Positions 17,710 to 48,271 of a DNA stretch of 64,000 nucleotides are shown here, piece after piece (position 1 is the stretch's first letter; each line of letters opens with the position of its first letter). A program made the position numbers and the translations under genes. Source of the DNA: Deltaproteobacteria bacterium (GTDB taxonomy: Bacteria > Desulfobacterota > Binatia > Binatales > Binataceae); contig DAHVFB010000001.1 of the NCBI GenBank assembly GCA_027317185.1, positions 35,954 through 99,953 on the forward strand, written 5' to 3'. The notes under the pieces were generated by a model. That model had not been told where the DNA came from. It made no database searches and saw only the letters and a program-made list of their open reading frames with translations.

Positions 17710-18375
17710 CTACATTGCCCCGGCAGCCCAAACTACACGGCCGGCGATCTTCACCAGCCCGGCGGAAACCGTGACCGCAGAATAGGCAGGGTTGTCACTG
17801 CGAATCCCCAGCGCCGTCCCACCGCGCTCACGCTGCACGCGCTTTACCACCAAATCGCTGCCGTCGAGCAACACGTACAAGCCGTCAACCACGGCCCGAG
17901 TCTGCCGCAAATCGGCCAGCACCAGGTCGCCCTCCGCCAGCGTCGGCGTCATCGAATCGCCAATCACGTCAAGCAACATCAAGCACTTGGGATCGATCGC
18001 CAACCGGCCTCGCAGCCAGTGGGATCGAAAGGCGAGCACGTCGGTAATCTGCGAACTGCGCAGGCGCGATCGGCCACGTGAGCCGGTTCGAACTTCGCTG
18101 CTCGATAAAAATGTAAAATCGTCGTAAGCGGCTCCTTGCGATCCAAGGTTATTGACCAGTTCCCGGCCGGTTGCGAGCCACTCGACCGACACTCCGGCGG
18201 CGCGCGCAAGCGCCACCAGGCTCGCGAGATTCGGTTGCCCTCGTCCCGCGATCCATTTGTAGACCGCGTTATCGGACACCCCGATCGTTCGCGCCAGTTC
18301 GGCCACGCCCACAAACTGCCGCACGATCGTTTTCAGCCGATCACTAAACAGTCCCTCTTCTACTATGGTTGACAT
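17710..18375 (-). CDS. Phage CI/LexA-like repressor (HTH_XRE plus S24 peptidase)
   Basis: 221 aa. N-terminal HTH (LARTIGVSDNAVYKWIAGRGQP). C-terminal S24 with Ser (GDSMTPTL) and Lys (VVKRV) dyad. Confidence 0.75.
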   Translation of the reverse strand: MSTIVEEGLFSDRLKTIVRQFVGVAELARTIGVSDNAVYKWIAGRGQPNLASLVALARAAGVSVEWLATGRELVNNLGSQGAAYDDFTFLSSSEVRTGSRGRSRLRSSQITDVLAFRSHWLRGRLAIDPKCLMLLDVIGDSMTPTLAEGDLVLADLRQTRAVVDGLYVLLDGSDLVVKRVQRERGGTALGIRSDNPAYSAVTVSAGLVKIAGRVVWAAGAM

Positions 18376-18400
18376 ATTGTTATCAAAATCTTGACAAGCT

Positions 18401-18429
18401 GTCGGTCTTTGTGAGATATGAACAGGTCC
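18401..18429 (+). promoter_or_regulatory. Candidate sigma70 early promoter divergent from the repressor gene (TTGACA-17-GAGATAT)
   Basis: ttgacaagctgtcggtctttgtgagatat, 26 bp beyond the repressor start. Tandem second TTGACA at 18370. Confidence 0.25.
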
Positions 18430-19157
18430 TATGGTGAAGGGGAGCCGCCTGTTTGTCTGATTATACGATCCCGGTTTCCCGCGACTCAGAGCTTGCGCAT
18501 CCCACCGTTATACATGGGTCCACTTTGATTCCATGGACTTCAGACCGGCTGTTACTTTTCGCAATCACGCATATTGGCGCTGCCAGATCGACCTTAAACT
18601 GCTTCGATCACCAGGCTCCCGTCGTACAGCAAGTCACATGCCGCTGCCAATCGAATGACCGTGCACGCACTCAAAAGATCGCCCCGGCGCTGCCAGACCT
18701 GGACTTTCGCGCAAAGCTCACATTCACCGCCGGGCATCGCGGGACAAACCCTTCCTGTGGGGACTTAGCACACTACTGTAGGATATTTGCATCATTCAAC
18801 GCGGGGAGAAACGCGCGCGATCCCAGCGCCCCATCCCGCGATGGAGCAGCTACGATGTAATGGCGCGCACGTCCCGCTGATTTGCCGCCAACCACCGATC
18901 CAAGGAGGGGGCTTCATGGATCACGTTCGAGTACACGCCGGGCGCTTTATACAGCGCCTGCTTCTTTCCAATTCCGAACCACTTGCGGCAGGCATACTTC
19001 GCCCGCCCTGAGCGGTGGCCGATTAAGCGGAACCTGCAAATTTGTTCCATTCCCGCTGAAGTTTCAGCGGCATTCGAAAACCAGAACCGGCCTGTAAGAC
19101 GGTTCCTCATCCCGCGGTTCGAGCCATCGGCGTCATGCCTGGCTTGGACGCGGCCTC

Positions 19158-19505
19158 ATGGTGAATGCAATGTCGATGTTGATGGAAATCGTGGATACGA
19201 TCGGCGACGACGCAGCCTTGAAACTGATCGCCGATTTTGCCGGCACGCGTCTTTATGTACCGCAAGAGCCAAATCCCGAGGATCCGATCTCCCGCTCGAT
19301 CGGCCTGCCGGCGGCGCAAAAGCTGGCCCGCCTGTACGGCGGTGATCGCATGGACGTCCCCAATCCTGCGGTGCGCCGCATGCGGATTTTGCAAATGCGT
19401 GCGGCCGGGGCCACCGTGGAATCGATCGCGCGGGAACTCCGATGCACCGCGCGGCGTGTTTACCAGGTGCTGGCCGAAGCCCGCACCGTCAGTCCCTCGC
19501 TCTGA
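19158..19505 (+). CDS. Mor/C-family phage transcriptional activator
   Basis: 115 aa. Central GTRLYVP motif and C-terminal HTH (ATVESIARELRCTARRVYQVL), as in the Mu Mor/C family. Confidence 0.5.
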   Translation: MVNAMSMLMEIVDTIGDDAALKLIADFAGTRLYVPQEPNPEDPISRSIGLPAAQKLARLYGGDRMDVPNPAVRRMRILQMRAAGATVESIARELRCTARRVYQVLAEARTVSPSL

Positions 19506-19838
19506 TTCCCGGCATATCGCCGGTCTCGCGCTGCCCTCCAAGGGCGGCACCCAATCCGTTTATACTTTGTTCTTGTTATCGCTTGACGCGCAACTACGTG
19601 TTTTGAACGGACGAGGACCCTCATCGCATCACTACATTTTGCTACTCACCACACACTATATTTTCTACTCGCTTGAGGCGCGAGGGCGACATACTAAGCC
19701 GCTAGCACTGCCGTAGCGGAAGCGTTTCAGGTCCAATTTTACCGAGATAGCAAGTAGCACACCACTGACTACTCGGTTTGTAATTATTTCCTTTCTGAAT
19801 GATGCCTGCACACTAGCCACTTATTTCAAAATGCCTAT

Positions 19839-19858
19839 TCAGTGAAAAATTTCAGTCT
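19839..19858 (+). promoter_or_regulatory. Candidate late-promoter/activator site TCAGTGAAAAATTTCAGTCT upstream of the lysis genes
   Basis: Near-identical 20-mer recurs at 33801-33820 upstream of the head gene gpI (19 of 20 positions). Built from direct TCAGTG/TCAGTC half-sites. Confidence 0.35.
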
Positions 19859-19925: not shown

Positions 19926-20450
19926 ATGAACACAGATTTGTTTCGTAATGCGCCATCATCTGGCTACCCACAGGCATTTGCGGTCGCTCTCGCCCGCGTA
20001 TTTGCCGACGAGGGCGGTTATAGCGATCAGCGTAACGATCCGGGTGGCGCCACCAAATATGGAATTTCGCAGCATCAGTATCCGACGCTCGACATTGCGA
20101 AGCTGACGCGAGACGAAGCCGCAACAATTTACTACCGCGACTGGTGGCAGCGTTTCGACTTCGGTTCGTTGCCCGATACTGTCGGCGGCAAACTGTTTAA
20201 TTTGGCAATTAATATCGGTCCGCGCGAGGCGTCGCTGTGCTTGCAGCGCGCGTTGCGGGCCTGCGGCCATCGGGTGGCCGAAGATGGCGCACTTGGTGAT
20301 CAATCCCGCGCCGCGGCGCAATCCGCCGATCCAGCAGCGCTCGCTGCGGCGCTGCGCTCGGAAGCTGCGGGCCATTATCGAGTGCTGGCCGTCTCGGATG
20401 CTCGCCGCAAAGTGTTTCTCGAGGGCTGGCTTAATCGCGCTTACGAATAA
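19926..20450 (+). CDS. Endolysin, glycoside hydrolase family 108 (N-acetylmuramidase)
   Basis: EGGYSDQRNDPGGATKYGI signature of GH108. The track ORF starts at 19842. ATG 19926 is preferred because the promoter motif overlaps 19842. Confidence 0.75.
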   Translation: MNTDLFRNAPSSGYPQAFAVALARVFADEGGYSDQRNDPGGATKYGISQHQYPTLDIAKLTRDEAATIYYRDWWQRFDFGSLPDTVGGKLFNLAINIGPREASLCLQRALRACGHRVAEDGALGDQSRAAAQSADPAALAAALRSEAAGHYRVLAVSDARRKVFLEGWLNRAYE

Positions 20451-20465
20451 AGAAGGAGAGAACTC

Positions 20466-20711
20466 ATGAACCTATCTTCATTGCTTGATGTTTCGGTGGC
20501 CGGTGTAACGCTTGGCGCTGCCGGATTCGCGCTCGGAACTCTTTTTGGGCATTGGCTGGCCGTACGCCTGATGGCGGCGATTCACGGACTGGAGTCGCGT
20601 CTCGCCGCGGTCGAACATGCGCTCGGACTTGGCGGCAAGCCGGTCACCAGCGCGCCGGCGAAAGCTCTGGTTTCAACTCCGGCGCCCAGTGCTGCGCAGC
20701 CGGTGAAATAG
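20466..20711 (+). CDS. Putative holin (small membrane protein)
   Basis: 81 aa, one or two TM segments, directly after the endolysin. Confidence 0.4.
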   Translation: MNLSSLLDVSVAGVTLGAAGFALGTLFGHWLAVRLMAAIHGLESRLAAVEHALGLGGKPVTSAPAKALVSTPAPSAAQPVK

Positions 20712-20713: not shown

Positions 20714-21121
20714 ATGTTCGCGCTGCTTCCGATACTAACCAGGGCCTGGAAACCGGCGATGTTGGCCGCGATCGTGGCGGGCGCGCTGATCTATTTATCG
20801 GTGCTGGTGCATGAGCGCAACGCCGCCCGTAGCGAGGTACGGCGCGATAGCGCGCAAATCGTTGATCTGCAGTCGAGTAATCAGCAGTTTCAGGCGGCGG
20901 TCGGCCAATGCAATGCACAGGTGACCAGGCTCAGGAGCGCGGCCGGCGCGCTCGCACGGGAGCAGCAGGCTCGGGAAAACAGTTTCAATCAACGCGCAAA
21001 TGCGATCGTGGCGGCCTCGGCCACTCAGGCCGCGATTCTGCAGACCGCCAAAATCGCTCCCGATTGCGAGAACGCGATTCGATGGGGCCGCGCCGAAGGA
21101 CCGGAGCTGGGCAGATGGTAA
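20714..21121 (+). CDS. i-spanin (Rz-like): N-terminal TM plus coiled coil
   Basis: MFALLPILTRAWKPAMLAAIVAGALIYL TM, then a Gln/Ala-rich coiled coil. Overlaps the next gene by ATGGTAA. Confidence 0.5.
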   Translation: MFALLPILTRAWKPAMLAAIVAGALIYLSVLVHERNAARSEVRRDSAQIVDLQSSNQQFQAAVGQCNAQVTRLRSAAGALAREQQARENSFNQRANAIVAASATQAAILQTAKIAPDCENAIRWGRAEGPELGRW

Positions 21122-21450
21122 CCGCTGCGAAAGCCTTCGCCGCGATCGCGATAATCTCCGCTGTGGGCGGATGCGCCGCGCGCCCGCCGATGGCCCCGCG
21201 TCCGGTCATGGTCAAAGTTCCGGTGCCGGTGCCGGTCTATTGCCCGCTTTCGCTACCGGACAAGCCACGGCTGCCGATAAGCGAGCTCACGCCATCTTCA
21301 ACTCCGGCCGATACCATTCGCGCTTACGCCTCGGCGGTCGCGATCCTGAAAGGCGCCGTGCGTCAGCGCGATCAGATGATCACCGGCTGCGCCGCGCCGG
21401 CCGCCAACTCCGCCAATAACGCCAACACCGCAAAAATAGCTGCAAAGTGA
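21115..21450 (+). CDS. o-spanin (Rz1-like) Pro-rich outer-membrane lipoprotein
   Basis: Lipoprotein signal AIAIISAVGGC and VPVPVPVYCP proline-rich region. Separate gene, not embedded in the i-spanin. Confidence 0.5.
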   Translation: MVTAAKAFAAIAIISAVGGCAARPPMAPRPVMVKVPVPVPVYCPLSLPDKPRLPISELTPSSTPADTIRAYASAVAILKGAVRQRDQMITGCAAPAANSANNANTAKIAAK

Positions 21451-21686
21451 TGAGATTTATCACCGACATACTGACAGGTAAGGACAATCTGACGTTCGAC
21501 GCCGCGCGCGTGATGGGCGTGATGGGAGCCGGCGCCTATATCGTGTTCTGGAGTGCGGCGGTATTCCATCTGGGCGTCTTCAGCGCCGGTGACGCGGCCG
21601 CCTACGGCACCGGTTTGGGCTTGGTGATGGTCGCGATGTCGGGGGCGGTGAGATTGAAGCAGGAAGCGGAGCCCGAGCGGCGATGA
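21447..21686 (+). CDS. Small membrane protein (second holin/antiholin-like)
   Basis: 79 aa with two hydrophobic segments. Confidence 0.35.
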   Translation: MMRFITDILTGKDNLTFDAARVMGVMGAGAYIVFWSAAVFHLGVFSAGDAAAYGTGLGLVMVAMSGAVRLKQEAEPERR

Positions 21687-21942: not shown

Positions 21943-22254
21943 ATGAACTGGCAATCCATTGGAGTGTTGCTGCTGTTTTTTATCGCCACCGGCGCGATCA
22001 ACCTCGCCGCTTTGCGGCTGCTGTTCAGACAGCATGAAGTGGCCTATCGCGGACGGCTCGAAGCGTTGCGGCGCCGGGGCACCGACCATTCGCAGCAGCT
22101 CGAACGCGAACTGACCAATCTGAAGTCGCAATTGCCCGCCGGCTATGTGCGGCGGGAGGACTGGATCAGGTTTGGCGCCCTGATCGACGCCAAGCTCGAC
22201 TCGATTCGCCATGACATGGCGGTGGTGAGAGATAAATTTGATGGACAGGCTTAA
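21943..22254 (+). CDS. Phage hypothetical membrane protein
   Basis: 103 aa, N-terminal TM segment. Confidence 0.35.
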   Translation: MNWQSIGVLLLFFIATGAINLAALRLLFRQHEVAYRGRLEALRRRGTDHSQQLERELTNLKSQLPAGYVRREDWIRFGALIDAKLDSIRHDMAVVRDKFDGQA

Positions 22255-22552
22255 TCTCGAACAAAAACAGCGCGAAACCGCGCGCTGGCGGATTCTGCGG
22301 GTGCTCGATGCGGGCCGCCCGATGCCGGTGTCCGAGGCGATCATATGGCGCGTGGTGACCGAGAGCGAGACCCAGTTGTCGCCCAACGCGGTGCGGCGTG
22401 AGCTGAGCTATCTGCGCGATCTCGCGCTGCTCGAAATCGAACACGAAGACACCGACACCTGGTCGGCCAAGCTCACCGCGCGCGGGGTCGATGTGGTCGA
22501 GTACACAATACCGGCGCCGGCCGGAATCGCGCGTCCGCGCAAGAACTGGTAG
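22238..22552 (+). CDS. Phage hypothetical protein
   Basis: 104 aa, overlaps its neighbours. Confidence 0.35.
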   Translation: MMDRLNLEQKQRETARWRILRVLDAGRPMPVSEAIIWRVVTESETQLSPNAVRRELSYLRDLALLEIEHEDTDTWSAKLTARGVDVVEYTIPAPAGIARPRKNW

Positions 22553-22557: not shown

Positions 22558-23094
22558 ATGCCACCCAGGTCCAAGACGAAATTGCTGCCAGCCGCGTTAC
22601 GCGAGGAACTTGAGCGCCGCCTGCTGGAAAAAAGCTTCAGCGGCTACCGGGAGCTTTCGCGATGGCTGGCCGAACAGGGCTACTCAATCACCCACGCCGC
22701 GTTGCACAAGTACGGCCGCAGCTTCGAGCGGCGGCTTAAGCAGGTGAAACTGGCCACTGCGCAGGCCCGCGCGATCGTCGAAGGCGCGCCCGATGACGAC
22801 AATCGGATCAACGAAGCGATGCAGATGCTGATCCAGCAGCGGCTGTTCGAAATTCTGGTCGAAGTCCAGGGCGACGAGCTCAAGGAGATCAACCTGCACG
22901 CGCTGGCCCGCTCGGTGGCGGAGCTGGGACGCGCATGGGTGATGCAGAAAAAATGGAAGGAAGAGACACGCGCGATAGTGGCCGGCAAGGTCAACGCCGC
23001 GGGCGAGAAGATCACCGGCGTGGCGCGCAATGCCGGGTTGACGCCGGAAACCGAGGACCGCATCCGCAAAGCCCTGCTCGAAATACAGGTGTGA
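22558..23094 (+). CDS. Mu gp27-like protein (DUF3486), terminase small-subunit role
   Basis: LPAALREELERRLLEKSFSGYRELSRWLAEQGYSITHAALHKYG matches the gp27/DUF3486 N-terminus. Directly precedes the large terminase. Confidence 0.55.
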   Translation: MPPRSKTKLLPAALREELERRLLEKSFSGYRELSRWLAEQGYSITHAALHKYGRSFERRLKQVKLATAQARAIVEGAPDDDNRINEAMQMLIQQRLFEILVEVQGDELKEINLHALARSVAELGRAWVMQKKWKEETRAIVAGKVNAAGEKITGVARNAGLTPETEDRIRKALLEIQV

Positions 23095-23096: not shown

Positions 23097-24629
23097 ATGA
23101 CCCCGCAAACCGACAAACTTTCAATTCTGCTTCCGTATCAAAGCCGCTGGATTGCCGATCCGGCGCAGGTCAAGGTGTGCGAAAAATCACGCCGCGTGGG
23201 TATCACCTGGACCGAAGCGGCCGATGCGGCGCTGGCGGCCGCCAGTCAGCGCGGCAGCGACACCTGGTATATCGGCTACAACAAGGACATGGCGCTGGAG
23301 TTCGTGTGGACCGCCGCCGAATGGGCGAAACGGTTCAATCGCGCCGCCCGCGAACTCGAGGAAATCGCGATCAACGACGAGGATCGCGACATCCTCGCCT
23401 ATCGTATCCGCTTCGCCTCGGGCCACAAGATTACGGCGCTGTCGTCGCGTCCTTCCAACCTGCGCGGCAAGGACGGGCGCGCGGTGATCGACGAGGCCGC
23501 CTTCCACGACGATCTCGCAGGCCTGATGAAGGCGGCGCTGGCCTTCACCATGTGGGGCGGCAAAGTGCGCGTGATTTCCACCCACAACGGCGCGGGCAGC
23601 GCCTTCAACGAACTGGTGAGCGACGTTCGCGCCGGGCGGCTCAACTATTCGCTGCATCGAATCGCCTTCGACGAAGCGATCGCGCAGGGCCTGTTCCGCA
23701 AAATCTGCGAACGCAACGATCGCGAATGGAGCGCGGCGGCCGAGCGCGCGTGGCGCGACGAGATCGTCGACTTCTATGGCGACAACTGCGACGAGGAGCT
23801 GTTCTGTACTCCGCGCGCCAACTCCGGCGCCTATCTGTCGACGCCGCTGATCGAAAGCCGGATGCGATCAGCCAGTCCAGTGGTGCGCTGGGCGATGCCG
23901 GCGGAGTTCGCCGGCGAACGGGATGAGATCCGATCCAAGATCGCGCTGGATTTCTGCCGCGAACAACTCGATCCGGCAATCGCGCTGCTCGACCCTTCGT
24001 TGATGAGCTGCTTCGGCGAAGATTTCGGACGCAGCGGCGACCTGACGGTTATCTGGCCGCTTCAGATCGAGGCGCGCCTGACGCGCCGCACGCCGTTCGC
24101 GGTCGAGCTGCGCAACATCCCGTTCCGTCAGCAGGAGCAGATTTTGTTTTATATCGTTGATCGCCTGCCGCGTTTTTTCGCCGGTGCGATGGACGCGCGC
24201 GGCAACGGGCAATACCTGGCGGAAATCGCAATGCAGCGCTACGGCAATCGGATCAAGCAGGTGATGCTGTCGGCCGAGTGGTACCGCGAGCAGATGCCGC
24301 GCTACAAGGCGGCCTTCGAGGACGGCACGATCGAGCTGCCCAAGGACGACGGCATTTTGTCGGACCATCGATCGCTGGTGATGGAGCGCGGGGTGGTGAA
24401 AGTGATGGAACGCCGCGAACGCGACGCCACCGGCGGACGCCATGGCGATTCGGCGATCGCCGGAGCGCTGGCCTGGTTCGCCTCCTATCAGGACGCCGTC
24501 GAATATGACTATGCGCCGATTTCGCGGGTCGCGGCGCGGGCGCTGGAACATGACATGTCAAATCGCGCCGGTGCGTCCGAGGATGCGTTGTCGGATCGCA
24601 GCCGCCGCTTCGGCATGGGCGCGTGGTGA
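23097..24629 (+). CDS. Terminase large subunit (Mu gp28-like)
   Basis: 511 aa from ATG 23097. ATPase plus nuclease layout, conserved VIDEAAFHDD and STHNGAGS regions. The track's N-extension comes from the preceding gene's frame. Confidence 0.8.
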   Translation: MTPQTDKLSILLPYQSRWIADPAQVKVCEKSRRVGITWTEAADAALAAASQRGSDTWYIGYNKDMALEFVWTAAEWAKRFNRAARELEEIAINDEDRDILAYRIRFASGHKITALSSRPSNLRGKDGRAVIDEAAFHDDLAGLMKAALAFTMWGGKVRVISTHNGAGSAFNELVSDVRAGRLNYSLHRIAFDEAIAQGLFRKICERNDREWSAAAERAWRDEIVDFYGDNCDEELFCTPRANSGAYLSTPLIESRMRSASPVVRWAMPAEFAGERDEIRSKIALDFCREQLDPAIALLDPSLMSCFGEDFGRSGDLTVIWPLQIEARLTRRTPFAVELRNIPFRQQEQILFYIVDRLPRFFAGAMDARGNGQYLAEIAMQRYGNRIKQVMLSAEWYREQMPRYKAAFEDGTIELPKDDGILSDHRSLVMERGVVKVMERRERDATGGRHGDSAIAGALAWFASYQDAVEYDYAPISRVAARALEHDMSNRAGASEDALSDRSRRFGMGAW

Positions 24630-24750: not shown

Positions 24751-26130
24751 ATGAAGCTATACGACGCGTATGGGCGAGCGGTAGACACCGGGCGCCTGCG
24801 TGAAGAACAGGCCGCGCCGACCTTCGCCGGCATCCGCAATATCTACTCCGTGATGCATCCGTCGGCCGGACTGACGCCCGAGCGCCTGTCCGCGATCTTG
24901 CGCGAAGCTGAGTCCGGCGATCCATATCTGTACCTCGAACTGGCCGAGGAGATGGAGGAAAAGGACCTGCACTACCTGGCCGTGCTCGCCACCCGCAAGC
25001 AATCGGTGGCCCAGCTCGACATGGTGATTCGACCGGCTTCGAGCGCGTCCGAGGACCTGAAGATCGCCGCGATGGTGCGCGAGGTGCTGCTCGACGGCAC
25101 GCTGGCGATGGAAGCGTTCCTGTTCGACAGCCTCGATGCGATCGGCAAGGGCTTTTCGGCGGTCGAAATAATCTGGGATACCGCCGGACGCACCTGGGTT
25201 CCACAGCGCCTGGTATGGCGCGATCCGCGCTGGTTTCTGTTCGATTGGATCAATGGCGAAACGCTGAGGGTACGCACGCTCGACGCGAGCGACCGCGAGT
25301 CGGAACTCGAGCCCGATCGCAGCAGCCATTTCCAGGGATCGGGCGCCGGTGCTCGATCGGGACTGCAACCGTTCACCGAACCCCTCCTGCCATACAAGTT
25401 CATCGTACATATCGCCAAGGCCAAGGCCGGACTGCCGATTCGGGGCGGGCTGGCGCGTGCGGCCGGCTGGTCGTACCTGTTCAAGAATTATGTGCTCAAG
25501 GATTGGGTCACCTACACCGAAGTTTTCGGCCAGCCTTTGCGGGTGGGCAAATATGGACCGGGCGCGACTGAGAACGACAAGCAGGTTTTACTCGATGCGG
25601 TGACCAATATAGGCAGCGACGCCGGTGCGATTATTCCGGACTCGATGGTGATCGAGTTCACGGAAGCGCGCCAGCAGGGCAGTATCGAGCTCTACGAAAA
25701 CTTCTGCGCCTACCTCGATCGCCAAGTCAGCAAGGCGGTGCTGGGACAGACGCTGACCACCGAGATGCCGCGCGAAGGTGGATCGCGCGCGGCCGCCCAG
25801 GTTCATCAGGCGGTGCGCCGCGACATCCTAAGCGCCGACGCCCGGCGGCTGGCCGCCACGATCACTCAGGATTTAATTAGACCGATTGTCGATCTGAATT
25901 TCGGGCCGCGCCCGCGCTATCCGCAATTCACGCTGGCCTTGCCCGAGGATCAGGACCTCAAGGTGTTTGCCGACATCATTGCAGAACTCGCCGACCGCGG
26001 GCTGCGCATCAGTCAGAAGACGGTGCTCGACAAGCTTGGATTGCCCGAGCCGCAGGCGGGAGAGCCGCTGCTGGAATCGATGCGCAATACGTCCGCCTCC
26101 GCCACCGCCGATCAGTCGCGCAAAGCATGA
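24751..26130 (+). CDS. Portal protein (Mu gp29 / DUF935 family)
   Basis: 459 aa from ATG 24751 (GGAG SD). N-terminal MKLYDAYGRAV...IRNIYSVMHPSAGLTPERLSAILREAESGD typical of Mu-type portals. Confidence 0.8.
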   Translation: MKLYDAYGRAVDTGRLREEQAAPTFAGIRNIYSVMHPSAGLTPERLSAILREAESGDPYLYLELAEEMEEKDLHYLAVLATRKQSVAQLDMVIRPASSASEDLKIAAMVREVLLDGTLAMEAFLFDSLDAIGKGFSAVEIIWDTAGRTWVPQRLVWRDPRWFLFDWINGETLRVRTLDASDRESELEPDRSSHFQGSGAGARSGLQPFTEPLLPYKFIVHIAKAKAGLPIRGGLARAAGWSYLFKNYVLKDWVTYTEVFGQPLRVGKYGPGATENDKQVLLDAVTNIGSDAGAIIPDSMVIEFTEARQQGSIELYENFCAYLDRQVSKAVLGQTLTTEMPREGGSRAAAQVHQAVRRDILSADARRLAATITQDLIRPIVDLNFGPRPRYPQFTLALPEDQDLKVFADIIAELADRGLRISQKTVLDKLGLPEPQAGEPLLESMRNTSASATADQSRKA

Positions 26131-38176: not shown

Positions 38177-38243
38177 TTCAGCCCGGGCGATGCGGCGGCG
38201 GCGCCGATCTTCCGGCGCATAATCCACCACAGGAGTGACATCA

Positions 38244-41076: not shown

Positions 41077-41080
41077 TGGC

Positions 41081-42214
41081 ATGAAACCGCGCGCAAAAAT
41101 TCCCTCGATGATCGAAACCATGCGGACTGTGCATCGCCGGTTGGCAGTGAAGCGATCACTAACCTCCGACTTTTCGATCCGATCGCTTGTGCGCAACAGC
41201 CAGGCGATCGCCGGCGAACATGGCGGCGACTCCGCGAACGAAACAACTGGCGCGCGCGGAAGCGACTCTCGAGTGGAATACGATTCGCGATCGCCTGCTG
41301 AATCAACTTCGCGACCGACGGGACAGCTTCGAATTCGCGATGCGATCACGAGTCAAAGTCCCTGGGGGCCGCTCGCATCGGATCGCCAAACCCGCGCCTC
41401 GGCGCGCCGCGACTATCTGACGAACCGAGAGCCTGATCAGACGCCCTCGCCAAAGCGTCGCAGTCTGACTCAGACGACGGATCGGCGTTACTCTCCATCT
41501 GCTCGCCTTTCAACGGACGGCTTTTCCGGCAGGGCTTATGATCCGAATTCCAAATTCATATCGGTTGGCGGCCGCCCGACGGCGAAACACTCAGCCTCGC
41601 GGCCGGATGGCGGAAACAGCTCGCTTGAGCTAGCGATCGCGAAGGTTACGCGGCTCGGCACACAACTGGATCGATCACACAGTGCGAAGCTCGCCGCGCC
41701 GACCGACTCGCGTCATCGCGCTGCCCCTGCTCGATCGAAATCAACCGCTTCGCCTAAGCGCGCTGAGGGCGCGCGTGATTCCAATCAGCAATTGAACGCA
41801 TCGCCACGAATTCGGTCGCTGTCATCCATAAAAGTGGGCGCATCGAGCGTGTCTCCACCGACCGGCGGCGAAAGCCGGCACGCTTTTACCAGCCTGGGCG
41901 GACTGATCTCAGGCGCCGGCGCTTCGGCGCGCGCTCACAACCATTACGGCAGGCCCGAACGTCTCAGGCCAGATCGCATTTTCAATCCGCCGCTGCCGGC
42001 GAACAGCAAAGGCGCCACGATTTCATCGAAGCCGCGAGCGGCCGCGGCAAGCGATCCCACCGTCGTGATCAATTCTTCGCCAACTATCGTGATCCACGCC
42101 GGGACAGCCGGCGATCTCGAGCGGCAGGTGCTCGAAGCGTTGCGGAACTATCGCAGCGAGCTGTACGACGAATGGCGTCGCGAAGTGGCGCGGCGCGAAA
42201 GAACGGAATTCTAG
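41081..42214 (+). CDS. Ser/Arg/Thr/Pro-rich low-complexity protein occupying the tape-measure gene position
   Basis: 378-codon ORF from ATG 41081 (or GTG 41069), overlapping the RRM stop. Only long ORF in the region. Composition disordered. C-terminal 45 aa more globular (DLERQVLEALRNYRSELYDEWRREVARR). Confidence 0.45.
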   Translation: MKPRAKIPSMIETMRTVHRRLAVKRSLTSDFSIRSLVRNSQAIAGEHGGDSANETTGARGSDSRVEYDSRSPAESTSRPTGQLRIRDAITSQSPWGPLASDRQTRASARRDYLTNREPDQTPSPKRRSLTQTTDRRYSPSARLSTDGFSGRAYDPNSKFISVGGRPTAKHSASRPDGGNSSLELAIAKVTRLGTQLDRSHSAKLAAPTDSRHRAAPARSKSTASPKRAEGARDSNQQLNASPRIRSLSSIKVGASSVSPPTGGESRHAFTSLGGLISGAGASARAHNHYGRPERLRPDRIFNPPLPANSKGATISSKPRAAAASDPTVVINSSPTIVIHAGTAGDLERQVLEALRNYRSELYDEWRREVARRERTEF

Positions 42215-42229: not shown

Positions 42230-42820
42230 ATGTTTGCGATCTTCGGAGATATCCCATTCGAGGTACTTGGCTCGCCCGAACAGATGGCGGCGACCAACAT
42301 CTACGGATACGCCGAACATCAGGTGGTCGAGGATCAGCCTCGTCTGCAATGGGTGGGAGACGCACTAACCGTTATTGAGCTCGAGTTGATGTTTCACGTT
42401 TCGTTCACCAGTCCGGCTTTGCAACTCGCGGCGCTCGAGTTGGCGGCCTCCGATCATCAGGCGCGCGCGCTGGTGTTCGGCAGCGGAGAGTACGTCGGCT
42501 ATTTCGTGGTGACGCGGCTCACCGTGATTTCGCGATCGCTCGGACCGACCGGCCTTCCGATCGCGATCTTGGCCAGACTCGAACTCAAACAATGGGCGAT
42601 CAATACTGGGCTAAGTGCAAGCTCGCCGTTGGCGCCATTGATCACGCCCATCGCCATCGCCGTAGCCTCCTCCTCGTCAAACACCGCATCAAATAACTCT
42701 CCGGCGATACCGGCCGTGTCAGCGATGCTCATAACTCCCGCTCCATCGGGTCCAGGCAGTTCGCAGATGACGCCCGGCGACGTTCCGACTACCAGAATCG
42801 TAAGAAGCGCCGGAGCCTGA
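42230..42820 (+). CDS. P2 gpU-like tail protein
   Basis: MFAIFGDIPFEV...ALVFGSGEYVGYFVVTRL...LELKQW follows the gpU family pattern. Ser/Pro-rich C-terminal tail. Confidence 0.55.
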   Translation: MFAIFGDIPFEVLGSPEQMAATNIYGYAEHQVVEDQPRLQWVGDALTVIELELMFHVSFTSPALQLAALELAASDHQARALVFGSGEYVGYFVVTRLTVISRSLGPTGLPIAILARLELKQWAINTGLSASSPLAPLITPIAIAVASSSSNTASNNSPAIPAVSAMLITPAPSGPGSSQMTPGDVPTTRIVRSAGA

Positions 42821-42841: not shown

Positions 42842-43072
42842 ATGAGCACTCAGGCGCAGTTTCTCGAACACACAACGATCGCTGGCGAGCGCTGGGATCT
42901 AATTGCCTGGGCCTATTATGGCGACCCCACGCTCTATCTGCCAATCGTGATGGCGAACCCCGGCATACCGATCGAACCGGTCTTCGAAGCCGGCCTGCAG
43001 CTCAAGATTCCAATCATTCAGGTGAGCCCAATCGCCACGGCCGACCTGCCACCATGGAAACGCGCCAGTTGA
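42842..43072 (+). CDS. P2 gpX-like tail protein
   Basis: GERWDLIAWAYYGDPTLYLPIVMANPGIP..GLQLKIP motif of tail protein X. Confidence 0.6.
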   Translation: MSTQAQFLEHTTIAGERWDLIAWAYYGDPTLYLPIVMANPGIPIEPVFEAGLQLKIPIIQVSPIATADLPPWKRAS

Positions 43073-43109: not shown

Positions 43110-44120
43110 ATGAATGCCGCCGTTGCATACCCAGTTCCATCGCCCAACTGGATACTGACTTACACAGGGCAGAATATCACCGCCGATATTTCTTCAATGG
43201 TACTTTCGATTAGCTACATCGATCATCTGTCGAGCCGCGCCGGCGAACTGGAAATCCTGGTCGAAGACAGCAGCCGCCAATGGCAGGGCGCGTGGTATCC
43301 GGCACTCGGCGACGAAGTTAATCTCCTAATCGGTTATCGGAACGCGCCGCTGTTGCCCTGCGGCGATTTCGAAATCGACCAACTGGAACTTGACGGGCCT
43401 CCCGACAGCTTTCGTATGCGCTGCCTATCCGCCTACATCACGCCTGCGATGCGCACCCGCAACACCTTCATCTACGAGAATCAGAGCCTGCTGGCGATTG
43501 CCGCGACAGTCGCACAAAAATACCAACTGCAAGTGGTGGGTATCGCTGACGCGATCAATCCGGTCTTCTCGCGCATCGTGCAGAAGCACGAAAGCGATGT
43601 TGAATTCCTAAATCGAATCGCCAGGGAGCACGACTACGATTTCACCGTACGAGGATCTCAACTGATCTTCTACTTTAGGGCGGCGCTGGCAGCCGAGGTC
43701 CCGCAAATCACGTTGACGCGTAGCGACGTGGAGCGCTTTTCCTTTCAAAATCGTACTCGCCACATTTACAAAGCCGCGCAGCTAAACTATTTCGACCCGG
43801 ACACCCGGCAATTAATTAGCCAATCGGCTGAAGCGGCCGGCATTCCGACCGGCGATACGATTAAGCTGGTGGCGCGCTGCGATAATGGTCAGCAGGCTTT
43901 GCTCAAAGCTCAGGCCGCGCTCGACGAGGCGAACTCGTCTTTTATTCACGCTACTTTTCTGCTGCCGGGCAATACCGCGCTCAGCGCCGGCAACACCGTT
44001 GCGCTTTCGGGTTGGGGATCGTTCGACGGTCGTTATCTCGCGGTCCAGACTGAGCATTTGTTAAACCGCAAAAGTGGCTATACGACAAAGCTTATAATGC
44101 GCCGCGTCATCGCCGACTAG
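43110..44120 (+). CDS. Late control gene D family protein (gpD, baseplate hub)
   Basis: 336 aa, gpD layout. Confidence 0.75.
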   Translation: MNAAVAYPVPSPNWILTYTGQNITADISSMVLSISYIDHLSSRAGELEILVEDSSRQWQGAWYPALGDEVNLLIGYRNAPLLPCGDFEIDQLELDGPPDSFRMRCLSAYITPAMRTRNTFIYENQSLLAIAATVAQKYQLQVVGIADAINPVFSRIVQKHESDVEFLNRIAREHDYDFTVRGSQLIFYFRAALAAEVPQITLTRSDVERFSFQNRTRHIYKAAQLNYFDPDTRQLISQSAEAAGIPTGDTIKLVARCDNGQQALLKAQAALDEANSSFIHATFLLPGNTALSAGNTVALSGWGSFDGRYLAVQTEHLLNRKSGYTTKLIMRRVIAD

Positions 44121-44143: not shown

Positions 44144-44608
44144 ATGTACAGACTTGGAATTGTAACCGAGCAGGATTCCACCGGCGCACGCGTGCGGGTG
44201 CGCTTTCCCGATCGCGATCAGATGCAGTCGTACTGGCTGCGAGTGGTAGTGCCGAAGACTCACGCCGACAAGGTTTTTTGGATGCCGGACCTGGGTGAGC
44301 AGGTGGTCTGTGCGATGGATGAATGGGATGAAGCGGGTGCCGTTCTCGGTGCGATTTATTCAAGCGTCGATACCACGCCAGTACAAAGTCCCGACAAATT
44401 CAACCTGACGTTTCTCGACGGCACCGTTATCGAATACGACCGCAGTGCGCACGCCCTTACTATAAATCTATGCGCCGGCGCCTCCGCTGCGCTCAATGCC
44501 CCGGCAGGAATTACCATTTCATCAGGCGCGACTAAGGTCACGATCGGACCGAGCGGCGTTTCGATCGTTCCGCCGCTGCCGATCACCTCGACGGTTGCGC
44601 AGACCTGA
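44144..44608 (+). CDS. Baseplate assembly protein V (spike)
   Basis: GIVTEQDSTGARVRVRFPDRD...SYWLRV OB-fold N-terminus of gpV. Confidence 0.75.
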   Translation: MYRLGIVTEQDSTGARVRVRFPDRDQMQSYWLRVVVPKTHADKVFWMPDLGEQVVCAMDEWDEAGAVLGAIYSSVDTTPVQSPDKFNLTFLDGTVIEYDRSAHALTINLCAGASAALNAPAGITISSGATKVTIGPSGVSIVPPLPITSTVAQT

Positions 44609-44625: not shown

Positions 44626-45021
44626 ATGGCGGCTACTTTGGCGAACATTACTTCGGTTGACTGGTCACTCAAGCTCGGCGCGATCGGTGAGGTGGTACAG
44701 GGCCTCGCGGATGTCGATCAGTGCATACAGATAATTCTGACTACTCCGAAAGGATCCGATCCGTTGCGTCCCACCTTCGGCAGCGATCTCTGGCGATATA
44801 TCGACTATCCGATCGACGTTGCGATTCCATCGGCGGTCCGCGAAGTAACGCAGGCAATCACCCTGTGGGAACCGCGAGTCAAGTTGGTGTCGGTCACCAC
44901 GTTGCCGGGAGAAACCGCGGGCCATTTGTCGGTCACCGTCATCTGGCGGTTGCAGCTTGGTTCGGCCGCATCGCAGACCCGCACCACCTCCGTCCAGCTT
45001 CCCGGTATCAGCCAGCCCTGA
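44626..45021 (+). CDS. Baseplate protein W (gp25-like)
   Basis: ILTTPKGSDPLRPTFGSDLW motif of the GPW/gp25 family. Confidence 0.75.
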   Translation: MAATLANITSVDWSLKLGAIGEVVQGLADVDQCIQIILTTPKGSDPLRPTFGSDLWRYIDYPIDVAIPSAVREVTQAITLWEPRVKLVSVTTLPGETAGHLSVTVIWRLQLGSAASQTRTTSVQLPGISQP

Positions 45022-45060: not shown

Positions 45061-46248
45061 ATGGCCGCTGGTGTTCCAAATCTTCCCGCTCCGCTGTTCG
45101 TCAACGACAGCGATGGGCTAGACCCGAACCTTATCCTCGCCGACATGATCGCGGCTTTCGAAGCCGCCGCCGCGCGCACGCTGCAGCCGGCGCAAGTCGA
45201 GCGCCTGCTGATCAACCTGTATGCGTATCGCGAATCTCTGGTGCGCGACGCGATCCAATATGCCGGGCAGCAAAACCTGCTCGCCTTCGCCAGTTTTCCG
45301 ATGATCGATTACCTGGGAGCGCTGCTTGGCGTAACAAGATTGGGAGCCGTCGGCGCCAGCGTCACGTTGCAGTTCACCTTAGTTAATCCGCTGAGCGTCC
45401 AATACACAATTTTCGCCGGCACACTGGTCGGAACCAATGACGGTCAGATCTCATTTGCGACCGACAGCGAACTGATTATTCCAGCGGGGAGTACGCAGGG
45501 AAGCGTCAGCGCGACCGCCACCACCGCGGGAACATCCGGCAATGGCTATCTGGCCGGACAGGTAAATGTATTACTCAATCCGAGCGCCCAGATCGCCAGC
45601 GTTACCAATACCGATGTCAGCAGCGGCGGCTCGGCGCCCGAGACCGACGATCACTACCGGACCCGTATCCAGGCCGCGCCGAACCAGTTTTCAGTCGCCG
45701 GTCCTTCCTCCGCCTATCGTTTTTTCGCCCTGGGGGCGGACCCTTCGATAATCGACGTCCAGGTTTTGAGTTCGGCGCCGGGCACGGTGGATGTTTATGT
45801 ATTGACCGGACCGGTCAGCGTGCAACCCGCGGCGGGTCCGAATCCGGGCGGTGTCGCGAGTGCTTCGCTGCTGCAGAAAGTGCAGGCGATTCTTTCGGCG
45901 GATAGCGTTCGGCCATTGACCGATACCGTGAACGTTAACCCCGTCACCGAAGTGGACTATCAGATAGCCGCCACGATTTCGCTATATACCGATGCCGATC
46001 CAGCGGCCACCATGGCGGCGGCGAATGCCGCGGCGGTGCAGTTTGCATTGAATCAGGCAGGCAGAATCGGGCGCGATGTCGTCGCCAGCCAGATCGTCAG
46101 CGCGCTTTCCGTGCCGGGCGTTTACCAGGTCAGCGTAACCGCACCGGTCGCCGGACAGGGGGTGCTCTCGATGTCCTCGGCACCGGGACTGTGGGCGAAC
46201 TGCACGGCGATTTCACTTACCCAGGCGACCAGCGCGGAGCATAGCTGA
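45061..46248 (+). CDS. Baseplate protein J
   Basis: 395 aa, Baseplate_J-like. Confidence 0.75.
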   Translation: MAAGVPNLPAPLFVNDSDGLDPNLILADMIAAFEAAAARTLQPAQVERLLINLYAYRESLVRDAIQYAGQQNLLAFASFPMIDYLGALLGVTRLGAVGASVTLQFTLVNPLSVQYTIFAGTLVGTNDGQISFATDSELIIPAGSTQGSVSATATTAGTSGNGYLAGQVNVLLNPSAQIASVTNTDVSSGGSAPETDDHYRTRIQAAPNQFSVAGPSSAYRFFALGADPSIIDVQVLSSAPGTVDVYVLTGPVSVQPAAGPNPGGVASASLLQKVQAILSADSVRPLTDTVNVNPVTEVDYQIAATISLYTDADPAATMAAANAAAVQFALNQAGRIGRDVVASQIVSALSVPGVYQVSVTAPVAGQGVLSMSSAPGLWANCTAISLTQATSAEHS

Positions 46249-46251
46249 GCG

Positions 46252-47094
46252 ATGCCCCACCTCACAGTTCAACCGTCGATAAACGACGCGCGGAGTCAGG
46301 CCCTGCTGCAACTGATCGAGCGGCTGGGCGCGATCGATCTGACGCCGATGCTGGTGTATCGAATCGATTCCGTGCCCCAGACCACGTTGCCGTTTCTGGC
46401 CTGGCAATTCGACATACTTTCGCCGCTATGGCAGCTAATCGCCCCCGACGGCGTCAGTATCGATGCGCTTACGGACATCGACACGCTTACCTCGATCGAT
46501 ACCCTGAGCGGCCCTGGCGGGCCGGCGGGCGGCGGCCAGCGCGCGATGCTCAAAACCGCCATCGCGCTGCATCGGGTACGTGGCACGCCGGCGGCGATCA
46601 AACGCGCGCTATCGCAATTGGGCTGGGGGGCCGTAAGCCTGATCGAAGGGCAGCAGAGCTGGGGTGGCAGCACGTATCCCGCGAATCAGGGATGGGCGGT
46701 CTTTCGCGTGATACTCGATGTCGCGGATAACCAATCGGTTGCCGCCTCGGACCTCAACCTGATTACCGCCGCGATTAATTTCTTCAAGCCGGCGCGCGCG
46801 TGGCTGGACTCCGTATGGTTCATGCTGCCGCCGATCATCGACGACACTCCGGTTCCGGCCGATCGGTTAAGCGCCGGCGGTATCGCACAAATCGAAATCG
46901 ACAATGCTCCCGAGCCGGCGGACGCGCTGCTGTCCAACGTAACGTCCGCGCCGCTTTCGGACCAGTACGGACCGATCACCCCGCGGTACAACGCGCATTA
47001 CCGGCATAGCGGAATCACCTATGGCGCCGCTGAACCGGTGGTCGCGGATTCGGCACTCGTGATCGGCGGCAACCCTGTCTTACAAGGAGGATAA
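46252..47094 (+). CDS. Phage tail protein I
   Basis: LPFLAWQFDI..W motif of P2 gpI-like proteins. Follows J. Confidence 0.65.
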   Translation: MPHLTVQPSINDARSQALLQLIERLGAIDLTPMLVYRIDSVPQTTLPFLAWQFDILSPLWQLIAPDGVSIDALTDIDTLTSIDTLSGPGGPAGGGQRAMLKTAIALHRVRGTPAAIKRALSQLGWGAVSLIEGQQSWGGSTYPANQGWAVFRVILDVADNQSVAASDLNLITAAINFFKPARAWLDSVWFMLPPIIDDTPVPADRLSAGGIAQIEIDNAPEPADALLSNVTSAPLSDQYGPITPRYNAHYRHSGITYGAAEPVVADSALVIGGNPVLQGG

Positions 47095-47095
47095 A

Positions 47096-47617
47096 ATGGA
47101 GTTGATTCGGACCCGTCTCGATCTTTCGGCCAGCATCTCCACTCGGCGTCCCACGGGAATCGTCGGCATCCGGATCTTCCGGCATGGGATGCTGATCGGT
47201 ACCCACGACTCGCCCAACCTGTTCGTCAACGCCGGCCTGCCCGCGCTGGCGGCGCTACTCGCGGGCGACACCGCCGGTCAGTCCGCCACCGCCATCGGTT
47301 TTGGCTCGGGTTCCAATGCCCCGGCGCTGACGGACACCGGCCTGAGTTCGCCCGCATACTATAAGGCGCTGGACAGCCATGCCGAGAACGGCACGAATCC
47401 AGGGTCGGGCAGCGTGCAGCTCAATTGGAGCCTGGTCGCCGCCGACAGTGGGGCGCAAGGTATCACGATCCAGGAACTGGGGCTGTTCGCCAATCCAACC
47501 GCGGTCGCGCTGCCGGGAACCAATTCGCCGACGATCCTGCTCGCGCGCAAAACGATCTCACCGATCACCTTCAGTTCCGGGATGAGCTTGACCGGAACCT
47601 GGACGCTTACTTTTTAG
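47096..47617 (+). CDS. Phage tail hypothetical protein
   Basis: 173 aa, between tail protein I and the fiber. Confidence 0.35.
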   Translation: MELIRTRLDLSASISTRRPTGIVGIRIFRHGMLIGTHDSPNLFVNAGLPALAALLAGDTAGQSATAIGFGSGSNAPALTDTGLSSPAYYKALDSHAENGTNPGSGSVQLNWSLVAADSGAQGITIQELGLFANPTAVALPGTNSPTILLARKTISPITFSSGMSLTGTWTLTF

Positions 47618-47671
47618 CTGACCATCGAACATCGCGCTCGCTCTGCGCAGACCCAATCGACTTAGGCTGAG

Positions 47672-48271
47672 GTGACCATGACGACCTTGATCGACAATGC
47701 GGAGTTCACGGCGGATGAAGTTTACGAAATTCAGGCGACCGACACGGTTGAAGGCGCGGCCACTGGCGCGAGCTTCGGGGGGATCGGAATTTCAAACCAA
47801 CCGCATCAGCAACTTGCCAACCGTACCGCGCTTCTGAAGCAACGGCAGGACACTAACCTCGCCAACATCTCCGCGCTGCAGACCTTTACCGCGCAGTTTC
47901 GGGGATCGTTGCAAGGTAACGGCTATCTTGAGATCCCGATCATCGACGTGGCTCGCGGCGCGGTGGTGGCGATAATCCAGTGGGGCTACTACTCACTGCC
48001 AGCCACAAAAATCAGCGGCGATACTCAGTATTCGGTGGTCTGGCCGATTCCGTTTCCGAACGCGATCCTGCTCCCGCCGCTGGCGACCAACGTCTACGCG
48101 GCGACCGGTGGCGAAAACACCGTGGCCTCGGTGATCTCCTATGGTACCGCCAGCGCGGTGTTCGTACTCGACGTGCCCAACGGCATGGTCACTGCGGGCG
48201 GCCAGACCGTTATTGGGGGCAATGGACCTGAGAAAAGCAACGGCTTCTCCTGGCTCGCGATCGGCTTTTGA
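47672..48271 (+). CDS. Short tail fiber protein
   Basis: N-terminus NAEFTADEVYEIQATDTVEGAATGASFGGIGISNQP..LANRTALLK resembles conserved tail-fiber N-terminal anchor domains. Last gene of the tail module. Confidence 0.5.
   Translation: MTMTTLIDNAEFTADEVYEIQATDTVEGAATGASFGGIGISNQPHQQLANRTALLKQRQDTNLANISALQTFTAQFRGSLQGNGYLEIPIIDVARGAVVAIIQWGYYSLPATKISGDTQYSVVWPIPFPNAILLPPLATNVYAATGGENTVASVISYGTASAVFVLDVPNGMVTAGGQTVIGGNGPEKSNGFSWLAIGF

Follow-up and report, generated by a model that had tools for sequence, protein, structure and literature searches.

A Mu/BcepMu-derived element without transposition genes, probably domesticated and particle-producing, in the Binataceae

The window that was analysed in this work is a 64,000-nt stretch of the contig DAHVFB010000001.1 (GCA_027317185.1, positions 35,954-99,953, forward strand) from a Deltaproteobacteria bacterium that belongs to the Binataceae. 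Between positions 17710 and 48271, it carries an element that consists of a phage repressor, a Mor-type activator, a lysis cassette, and genes for DNA packaging, a Mu-type head and a contractile tail, and in which no transposition genes were found. We consider it probable that this element is domesticated and produces particles under the repressor/Mor switch, and that it descends from a BcepMu/Mu-type phage and is fixed and vertically inherited in the Binataceae. The window was annotated by listing and translating its open reading frames (ORFs) and by Pfam and PHROG scans. An exact-sequence look-up of the window's own major head protein, gpT, gave no match, and the relatives were reached by homologue searches. 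A scan of metagenomes with an alignment of the large terminase (TerL) yielded at least 361 loci, 250 family loci (3.19 Mb in total) were fetched, and a scan with a gpT alignment, in which each GTDB species was represented by one genome, found 106 carrier species, the best 80 of which were compared in detail. The coordinates refer to the window, and the genes from the activator onwards lie on the plus strand unless stated otherwise.

The left flank holds two host genes, a selD-like gene (13897-14859) and selB (15020-16951). The preliminary description, which was made from the sequence alone, named selB as the left neighbour; it is indeed close by, but a gene for a 180-aa lipoprotein-like product (17007-17549, minus strand) with no Pfam or PHROG match intervenes. 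This gene is conserved beside the repressor in the window's clade, and an ORF at the same position in L004, a locus of the closest sequenced relative, is 66% identical (ratio of nonsynonymous to synonymous divergence, dN/dS, 0.23); it is also present in L172 and L173, and its status as a part of the element is uncertain. The repressor (17710-18375, minus strand) is of the CI/LexA type with an HTH_3 (Pfam, 7e-9) and a Peptidase_S24 domain (7e-14) and matches phrog_4. It is separated by a domain-free gap of 782 bp (18376-19157) from a late transcription activator of the Mor/C family (19158-19505; Pfam Mor, 6e-7, and HTH_23; phrog_836, 3e-22; dN/dS 0.11), which bears out the earlier reading of a CI-like repressor and mor with about 780 bp of ORF-poor DNA between them.

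The lysis cassette begins with an endolysin (19926-20450; Pfam Glyco_hydro_108, 7e-21, and PG_binding_3, 1e-12), for which the mechanical ORF start was 19842 and the checked ATG is at 19926. Three small genes without a family match follow: a protein with a transmembrane (TM) segment (20466-20711), a lipobox protein that may be spanin-like (21115-21450) and a protein with two TM segments that may be holin-like (21447-21686). A 79-aa ORF of the cassette is 82% identical in L004 (dN/dS 0.20). Next are the counterparts of BcepMu gp25 (21943-22254; phrog_462, 4e-11) and gp26 (22238-22552; phrog_436, 1e-25), both of which are positioned as in BcepMu, a small-terminase-like DNA-binding protein of the Mu gp27 type (22558-23094; Pfam Phage_Mu_Gp27, 6.5e-39), TerL (23097-24629; phrog_2, 9e-33; dN/dS 0.28) and a Mu-type portal (24751-26130; Pfam Portal_Mu, 4e-105). 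A block of non-phage cargo genes (26241-33510, Pfam annotation) separates the portal from the head protease/scaffold of the Mu I type (33949-35061; Pfam Mu-like_Pro, 3e-72). The latter is followed by a 231-aa virion structural protein of the decoration type with a C-terminal immunoglobulin (Ig)-like domain (35222-35917; phrog_1731, 2e-25, and phrog_807), which resembles orf38 of RS138 and whose relatives carry PF27730, by gpT (35947-36897; Pfam Mu-like_gpT, 2e-98) and by two head-completion/tail-terminator proteins, Mu gp36 (36917-37351; Pfam Phage_Mu_Gp36, 8e-35) and gp37 (37391-38176; Pfam Gp37, 1e-30, and Phage_tail_terminator), the second of which has an extra C-terminal Ig-like domain (phrog_807, residues 174-259).

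The tail genes comprise the sheath (38235-39746; Pfam Phage_sheath_1/1C; dN/dS 0.12), the tube (39769-40287; Pfam Phage_tube; dN/dS 0.08), a tail-assembly-chaperone-like ORF (40306-40641; phrog_21320; dN/dS 0.16), a 94-aa protein with an RNA recognition motif (RRM; 40792-41076; Pfam RRM_1, 1e-15; no PHROG family) and a tape-measure-like ORF of 381 aa (41069-42214; no Pfam or PHROG match). They are followed by a baseplate set of the P2/BcepMu type with a dN/dS of 0.12-0.30, i.e., gpU (42230-42820; Pfam Phage_P2_GpU), gpX (42842-43072; Phage_tail_X), gpD (43110-44120; Phage_GPD), gpV (44144-44608; Phage_base_V), gpW (44626-45021; GPW_gp25), gpJ (45061-46248; Baseplate_J) and the tail gpI (46252-47094; Tail_P2_I). 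Two short fibre/receptor-binding proteins (47096-47617 and 47672-48271), which as a pair match phrog_5417, phrog_4209 and Pfam Gp53-like_C, form the right end of the element and are 53-68% identical in two syntenic relatives. A module of about 70 residues that is Ig-like (motif VVVTSDPAGTTY) is common to the 35222-35917 protein, the C-terminal third of gp37 and residues ~100-180 of the sheath; it corresponds to PF27730/UCP028589 in the relatives and matches phrog_807. Proteins of the head, neck and tail seem to have received copies of a single surface domain. Only 13 nt separate the last fibre stop codon from the convergent host operon of an SDR gene and a ring-hydroxylating dioxygenase (RHD), the operon that had been reported at 14 bp.

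When the map was compared with those of Mu, BcepMu and RS138, the late gene order agreed almost gene for gene with BcepMu and better with it than with Mu. The Mu late-gene order that was initially proposed holds in that the genes from the endolysin to the fibre are present, but the tail is BcepMu/P2-like and not Mu-like. The particle module cannot be called complete, as had been suggested: of the Mu-type head module, gp27, TerL, the portal, I, T, gp36 and gp37 are present in addition to Mor, but F (gp30) and G (gp31) are absent from the window, the place that these two genes take behind the portal in Mu, BcepMu and RS138 is filled by the 7.3-kb cargo, and the tape measure is short.

In Mu, the ner, A, B and semi-essential early genes are located between the repressor and mor. 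The corresponding gap of the element was screened using a six-frame Pfam search at E<=1, PHROG for its two ORFs, and tblastn with the transposition and early proteins of BcepMu, RS138 and the phage-like relative L239; none of these returned a domain, family or match. A transposase remnant at 18376-19157 or adjacent to it was looked for with a negative result, and the Pfam, PHROG and tblastn searches found no DDE transposase, integrase or replication protein in the element or elsewhere in the 64-kb window, in line with the preliminary description. The tblastn searches of the window with A, B, F, G and the tape measure of BcepMu and RS138 produced only chance-level matches; one weak A-like match at 4956-5220 (E 0.02) was discarded because it falls within the SMC gene. 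Searches of the 250 family loci using tblastn and small hidden Markov models (HMMs) built from Mu, BcepMu and RS138 proteins did not detect A, B, F or G either. A Mu-like phage carries transposase A and ATPase B in its early region, and neither was found here; the element is Mu-like by ancestry and not a functional member of the Mu-like phages.

The same compact arrangement was found in the relatives. In 39 loci, among them 33 metagenomic loci and 5 on long contigs that contain both genes, the repressor and Mor are separated by 427-1360 bp. The genomic context was inspected for five portal relatives on long contigs; in the four whose loci contain the whole repressor gene, no more than a single small ORF comes between it and Mor, all five share the order endolysin, gp27, TerL, portal, and none has a transposase. 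Judged by these sequences, the loss of the transposition genes is ancestral and not recent. The gap sequence itself is poorly conserved except for a block at ~18893-18920, and the 782 bp presumably hold only a divergent early promoter and operators. In the window's clade, this block consists of a ribosome-binding-site-like GGAGGGGG and an ATG, which in the window opens a 31-codon ORF, perhaps for a short regulatory peptide, perhaps a remnant. The Binatus clade has, between the repressor and Mor and overlapping the Mor start, a conserved ORF of 73-78 aa with a CxxC...CxxC zinc-finger-like pattern (L005, 3492-3713; L007, 3232-3453; L009, 2428-2664), which is absent from the window's clade; it is perhaps an additional regulator of about the size of Ogr/Com. 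Two outlying loci have kept an intact early region of the Mu type. L239 (VFSW01008986.1, 1-6600), a more distant relative with a TerL that is ~66% identical, has just upstream of Mor the genes for an AAA_22/TniB-like ATPase, a DnaA_C-HTH protein, Gam, ParB_N and GemA, while L243 has GemA; both carry a Hydrolase_2 endolysin instead of GH108. They are probably live transposable phages that are related to the ancestor of the element, and the genes upstream of Mor in L239 show what the Binataceae element has lost.

The ends of a Mu-type phage were not recognised either. When the left boundary was searched for repeats, nothing beyond short, chance-like ones turned up, and there were no meaningful inverted terminal repeats or Mu-end candidates; Mu-type ends would be flanked by a 5-bp duplication, which on its own would not permit a statistical assessment. 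At the right, the 13 nt between the fibre stop and the stop of the SDR gene leave no space for an attR or a right end. Neither the Rfam nor the tRNA scan gave a match anywhere in the window, and thus a tRNA attachment site is lacking as well. This bears on the idea of a helper-dependent element that is mobilised by a co-resident Mu-like phage of the L239 type, which would provide the transposase in trans. Related transposable phages with early genes do occur in the same metagenomes; however, a transposase needs Mu-type ends, the locus is fixed across species and the full structural set is unlike that of satellites, all of which make this explanation highly unlikely. The remainder of the window consists of housekeeping genes (FtsY, SMC, RNase G, MoaC, thioredoxin reductase, UvrD, a YkuD transpeptidase and sugar-modification enzymes), and a stand-alone HNH endonuclease gene (7403-8047) lies among them between SMC and RNase G.

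Analysis of the non-coding regions pointed to a shared control of the late genes. The 19-nt dyad CAGTGAAAWATTTCAGTCT occurs exactly twice in the window, compared to 0.01 copies expected by chance: as CAGTGAAAAATTTCAGTCT at 19840-19858 (plus strand), 86 nt upstream of the endolysin ATG, and as CAGTGAAATATTTCAGTCT at 33802-33820 (plus strand), 147 nt upstream of the ATG of protease I. This dyad type, which can also be written GTGAAAWATTTCA, therefore precedes both the lysis and the head operon. When the window, L004 and L013 were aligned, the copy near the protease was the single conserved block in an otherwise diverged intergenic region. Of 112 family loci, 93 have a dyad of the CAGTGAAAWATTTCAGTCT type or of the TGAACNGTTCA type of the Binatus clade at a distance of at most ~400 nt upstream of protease I, and this interval, which makes up 1.8% of the searched sequence, contains 41% of all of the dyad matches. 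For the GH108 endolysin, 19 of 47 family loci have a dyad upstream of the gene; a separate promoter is not expected in many of the remaining loci, in which the genes for Mor and the endolysin overlap. The late promoters Plys and PI of Mu depend on the Mor-family activator C, and we take the positions of the two dyads to correspond to Plys (19840-19858) and PI (33802-33820). Based on this agreement in position, we infer that they are candidate Mor-dependent promoter sites, which Mor would bind in order to drive the two late operons. Sigma-70 promoter and terminator scans around the regulatory regions remained at chance level. An exact direct repeat of 13 nt, TCGCTTGASGCGC, of the form TCGCTTGA(C/G)GCGC, is also located in the AT-rich spacer between Mor and the endolysin, upstream of the late dyad, at 19579-19591 and 19669-19681 (90 bp apart); as a shared operator it was rejected because it does not recur at other operons. 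Similarly, the k-mer conservation before protease I in the Binatus clade turned out to be N-terminal coding sequence, and the non-coding dyad emerged from the alignment of close relatives.

The organisation of the element can be disrupted without a loss of its genes. The cargo comprises, on the minus strand, three secreted repeat/Kelch proteins (a 453-aa protein, a 328-aa protein and a Kelch propeller) and, on the plus strand, a Q-rich lipoprotein (30614-31243; only a weak match to DUF7537), a Methyltransf_24 enzyme (31354-32172) and an amidohydrolase (32176-33510; both by Pfam). The lipoprotein has a (QQMQM)n repeat and a glycine/methionine-rich tail. Together with the methyltransferase it forms a pair that is 57-76% identical in the relatives, in which it is found in either orientation. 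The amidohydrolase was found in this genome only and in none of the relatives examined, including the closest ones, and it looks like a recent insertion at this site. The cargo measures 5-7 kb in the window's clade and ~13 kb in the Binatus clade, and in contig_13844 the portal and gpT are 15.3 kb apart, while in eight species the portal and protease I are adjacent, with neither the methyltransferase nor F or G between them. The portal/protease junction is thus a cargo site, and the cargo is dispensable for the particle. In contig_22604 (ENA ERZ25039474; L009 and L010, ~168-233 kb), the element is even split into two halves that are ~33 kb apart and on opposite strands. The left half, from the repressor to the portal, is at ~213-223 kb on the plus strand, the right half, from the protease to the tail, runs from ~181 kb downwards on the minus strand, and a thiolase, a ROK kinase, a beta-lactamase-family protein and other host metabolic genes lie between them. 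Both halves are intact, and the dyad has been kept before the relocated protease operon. Cargo insertion together with a split locus is an organisation that no free phage could tolerate.

The tail region has two unusual features. The RRM gene, whose RRM_1 domain is a eukaryote-type RNA recognition motif, lies between the tail chaperone and the tape-measure slot, occupies the same position in 54 of the 80 species loci and has a dN/dS of 0.05-0.17. The slot itself is only 1.15 kb long, and its 381-aa ORF is rich in R, S, A and P. In most of the relatives, the ORF before gpU has 210-507 aa and a highly variable sequence, but the last ~45 aa are conserved throughout the family (PTxVIN...ALRxHRxELFxQxxRExxRRxRxxF) and show a weak alignment with the C-terminal end of the tape measure of BcepMu; we read the ORF as a putative shortened tape measure. 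The ORF is absent from ~13 species, in which the RRM gene borders on gpU (L023, L027, L030, L035, L037, L038, L043, L071, L074, L078, L086, and also L020 and L057, with the junction at ~15.0-15.4 kb of each locus); no tape-measure-like sequence was found elsewhere within these loci. In this subclade, the sheath, tube, gpU, D, W, J and RRM genes nevertheless have a dN/dS of 0.02-0.18 at a dS of 0.5-1.4. A contractile tail that is under selection without a linked tape measure may reflect a relocated gene or a tape-measure-independent assembly. The view that we are dealing with a decaying prophage with a destroyed tape measure was dropped because of the family-wide conservation of the C-terminus and the purifying selection on all of the genes.

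The distribution of the relatives is narrow in terms of the host. The portal has thousands of relatives with 67-80% identity, nearly all of which are labelled as Candidatus Binataceae or Binatus. For gpT, more than 1400 relatives were found, the best 120 of which are 77-100% identical. Relatives of gpT are present in the representatives of 106 GTDB species; the best 80 species, at 77-90% identity, are Binataceae-type metagenome-assembled genomes (MAGs) from 80 different assemblies. L058 (DASQHV010000229.1), with a gpT that is 82% identical to that of the window, is labelled as Candidatus Acidiferrales, which looks like a binning or labelling error and not a transfer. The window, L252 and L253 share the order of the right flank (SDR, RHD beta, RHD alpha, DUF6178, BFN/PDZ, FtsJ and UvrD), with host flank proteins 55-86% identical and element proteins 37-90% identical, and the synonymous divergence between the window and its relatives is ~1, i.e., saturated. 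The shared flank at such a divergence indicates that the element was already at this site before the species separated. In the Binatus clade, a Carboxyl_trans-DoxX-repressor junction is common to 12 loci, and the pairwise divergence of the host carboxyltransferase and of TerL correlated well (Spearman 0.93, 15 pairs). The composition of the element is also that of its host, with a guanine-plus-cytosine (GC) content of 0.609 compared to 0.613 in the flanking host genes and, at the third codon position (GC3), of 0.721 compared to 0.718.

The selection acting on the element was assessed using 30 genes of the window and its closest sequenced relative (loci L004 and L012), among them those for the repressor, Mor, endolysin, gp27, TerL, portal, protease, sheath, tube, baseplate, RRM protein and methyltransferase. 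All 30 were intact without stop codons, with a dN/dS of approximately 0.06 (gpT) to 0.30 at a dS of ~0.5-2.2. In TerL, the Walker-A-like KSRRxGxT, the Walker B VIDEA and three Asp-containing nuclease motifs are invariant in six family members, and in the repressor the serine of GDSM and the lysine of VKR are invariant in five relatives. The window taken alone would fit a recent deletion in a dying prophage equally well, and a cryptic remnant that is decaying by deletion, with the loss of the early region as one step, would account for the lack of the early region, of F and G and of both ends, for the foreign genes inserted in the middle and for the shrunken tape measure. Over such a timescale, however, neutral decay would have destroyed the ORFs, whereas the genes are intact across more than 100 species, frameshifts or stops in most family members were not seen, the dN/dS remains at 0.06-0.30 at a saturated dS, and the catalytic motifs of TerL and the repressor and the regulatory dyads are conserved. 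Intact genes with a low dN/dS and invariant motifs argue so strongly against a decaying relic that we regard it as extremely improbable, and the comparative evidence favours domestication.

It may be asked whether only the tail was domesticated, either for a weapon or injection device that is similar to tailocins or extracellular contractile injection systems (eCIS), or as an SOS-triggered lysis module, with the heads having been kept for other reasons. The contractile tail and baseplate are strongly conserved, F and G are lost, the tape measure is unusual, and the RRM protein and secreted cargo proteins accompany the element, which would be compatible with such a role. The most conserved gene of all, however, is gpT (dN/dS 0.064, 77-90% identity), TerL, the portal, the protease and the gp36/gp37 connectors are under selection with their catalytic motifs intact, and known tailocins and eCIS have no capsid and terminase genes. 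We therefore consider a tail-based device to be unlikely.

Another candidate is an autonomous temperate or transposable phage family of the Binataceae with functions for mobility and replication that escaped recognition or are supplied in trans from another part of the genome. Its structural, lysis and regulatory genes would also be intact and selected, as in a live phage. In IMG/VR, 111 related contigs are classed as viral, the fibre proteins diverge fast, the flanks differ between the clades, and the searches covered the loci and their flanks. On the other hand, the gap between the repressor and Mor does not exceed 1360 bp in 38 loci and compact members, with a cluster of ~23 kb, have no spare ORFs, no A/B or integrase was found in any of the flanks examined, and there is no space for an attR at 13 nt from the host gene. 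Moreover, the same insertion site is occupied in species at a dS of ~1, halves that are ~33 kb apart are still intact, no assembly among the best 80 contains two copies, and the composition is host-like. An autonomous phage is in our opinion a doubtful explanation, at a level of probability similar to that of the tail-based device.

The evidence is thus best explained by an element that is probably vertically inherited, SOS-inducible and of the GTA (gene transfer agent) or PBSX type. It would have lost the early region between the repressor and Mor, both Mu ends, F and G, while the regulatory pair, the lysis cassette, the DNA-packaging machine, the head genes and the contractile tail were kept under purifying selection. 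Its action may be envisaged as follows. DNA damage would stimulate the RecA-dependent self-cleavage of the S24 repressor, as suggested by its invariant Ser/Lys dyad, and an early promoter in the 782-bp gap would then lead to the expression of Mor. Mor would activate the two late promoters with CAGTGAAAWATTTCAGTCT, one for the lysis-terminase-portal operon and the other for the protease-capsid-tail operon. The headful machine of gp27, TerL and the portal would fill the heads in situ; because replication, transposition, excision and Mu ends are lacking, the packaged DNA would most likely be chromosomal. Finally, tails would join the heads, the cell would lyse, and the particles set free in this way would be either gene transfer agents or killer particles similar to PBSX.

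Several observations weigh against a domesticated, particle-producing element. F and G are essential head genes in Mu, and the tape measure is short and atypical and absent from ~13 species; the particle is perhaps incomplete unless substitutes are encoded elsewhere. The transposase and integrase search extended over 10-kb flanks, and A/B, F, G or a tape measure could be present at distant loci. The dN/dS values are approximate because dS is saturated, and the 106 species are a count of carriers that implies no share of the Binataceae. With respect to vertical descent, the left neighbour is selB in the window but a PrmA-like gene in its closest relative, and the Binatus clade has another right flank; we attribute such differences between the clades to rearrangement, but this is the weakest point of the argument, and some mobility on a long timescale may have occurred. 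In addition, the element has kept its own phage-type repressor, unlike the host-regulated agents of the RcGTA type. The hosts are all uncultured MAGs, and particle production, packaging and delivery, as in the domesticated or GTA-like reading of the preliminary description, which the comparative evidence supports, are deduced from the genes.

A further step, which we propose only tentatively, is that the element represents a new family of gene transfer agents that arose independently from a transposable Mu/BcepMu-like phage and became fixed across the Binataceae. Such an agent would be run by an SOS-sensitive repressor and a Mor regulon that coordinates separated loci, and it would have an RRM protein in the tail region and a vestigial tape measure or none. 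To our knowledge, only a handful of independently evolved GTAs and PBSX-like particles have been described, all from cultured hosts, and we know of no such system that was derived from a transposable phage. Full-text literature searches found no paper that links Binatia, Binatota or Binataceae with GTAs or an element of this kind, and no Mu-derived GTA appeared in the titles and abstracts of the papers found that combine GTAs, Mu-like phages and domestication. If particles are made, this would be a further independent domestication, in a phylum without cultured members that is abundant in soils and peat, and possibly a major route of gene exchange or interference competition in these habitats. 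The locus also illustrates how a Mu-type phage can be tamed: the early region is removed and both ends are lost, while the repressor/Mor switch and the two late promoters are kept, which would allow the structural genes to be split while they stay coordinated. The variable cargo site and the subclade without a tape measure are testable oddities for the biology of tail assembly.

Among the known systems, PBSX is the nearest analogue by architecture. It is a phage-derived cluster of ~28-30 kb in Bacillus that is fixed in the chromosome, is conserved within its host clade and has its own repressor and late activator as well as terminase, head, contractile tail and lysis genes, but no integrase or replication genes. 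It is induced by DNA damage, and its SOS-induced, small-headed particles contain host DNA and are lethal to sensitive strains, into which they inject no DNA. The element described here agrees with PBSX in its size, its fixed position, its conservation in a host clade, the kinds of genes that it has kept and the lack of integrase and replication genes, and induction by DNA damage is likewise expected for it; the proteins of the two are analogous and not homologous. PBSX relies on an Xre repressor and the sigma-like factor Xpf, while the element has a Mu/BcepMu-type head and Mor and occurs in another phylum; it also has a variable cargo, can be split into two loci, has a short or absent tape measure and, in contrast to both PBSX and RcGTA, is known from its genes alone. 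A 28.7-kb PBSX-like region is described as showing high conservation among Bacillus strains and as having bacteriocin activity (PMC8347963).

GTAs are domesticated phage-derived elements that are immobilised, vertically inherited and under purifying selection, and whose particles are released by lysis (PMC8987985). The element resembles them in being a structural cluster without replication or integration functions, and its vertical inheritance under purifying selection is supported by the distribution, synteny, dN/dS and composition. The genes of RcGTA are dispersed over several loci, go back to a siphovirus of the HK97 type and are under the control of host regulators. The multi-locus arrangement is similar to that of the split contig_22604, whereas the element is Mu-derived and myovirus-like, with a phage repressor/Mor circuit. 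The functional hallmarks of GTAs are a small head, the packaging of essentially random host DNA, usually in pieces shorter than the gene cluster itself, and its delivery to recipient cells. R-type pyocins and other tailocins are likewise domesticated, with a P2-type contractile tail, lysis genes and an SOS-linked regulation, but they have no capsid, portal or terminase; these are the best-conserved genes here, and the element is therefore not a tail-only device. The closest agreement in gene order is with BcepMu, which shares the late order of the lysis genes, gp25, gp26, gp27, TerL, portal, I, T, gp36 and gp37, followed by the tail set of sheath, tube, chaperone, tape measure, U, X, D, V, W, J, I and fibre. 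A Mor/C-type activator and candidate late promoters placed as Plys and PI of Mu are further common features. Compared to BcepMu and Mu, the element lacks A, the B ATPase, Gam/GemA and other early genes, the ends, F (gp30), G (gp31) and gp38; its tape measure has 381 aa compared to 846 aa in BcepMu, and the RRM gene, the cargo and the fixed position are additional differences. The element is set apart from these systems by its origin from Mu, by a Mor regulon with two promoters that has been retained, by the hot spot for cargo, by the RRM gene and by a tape measure of reduced size.

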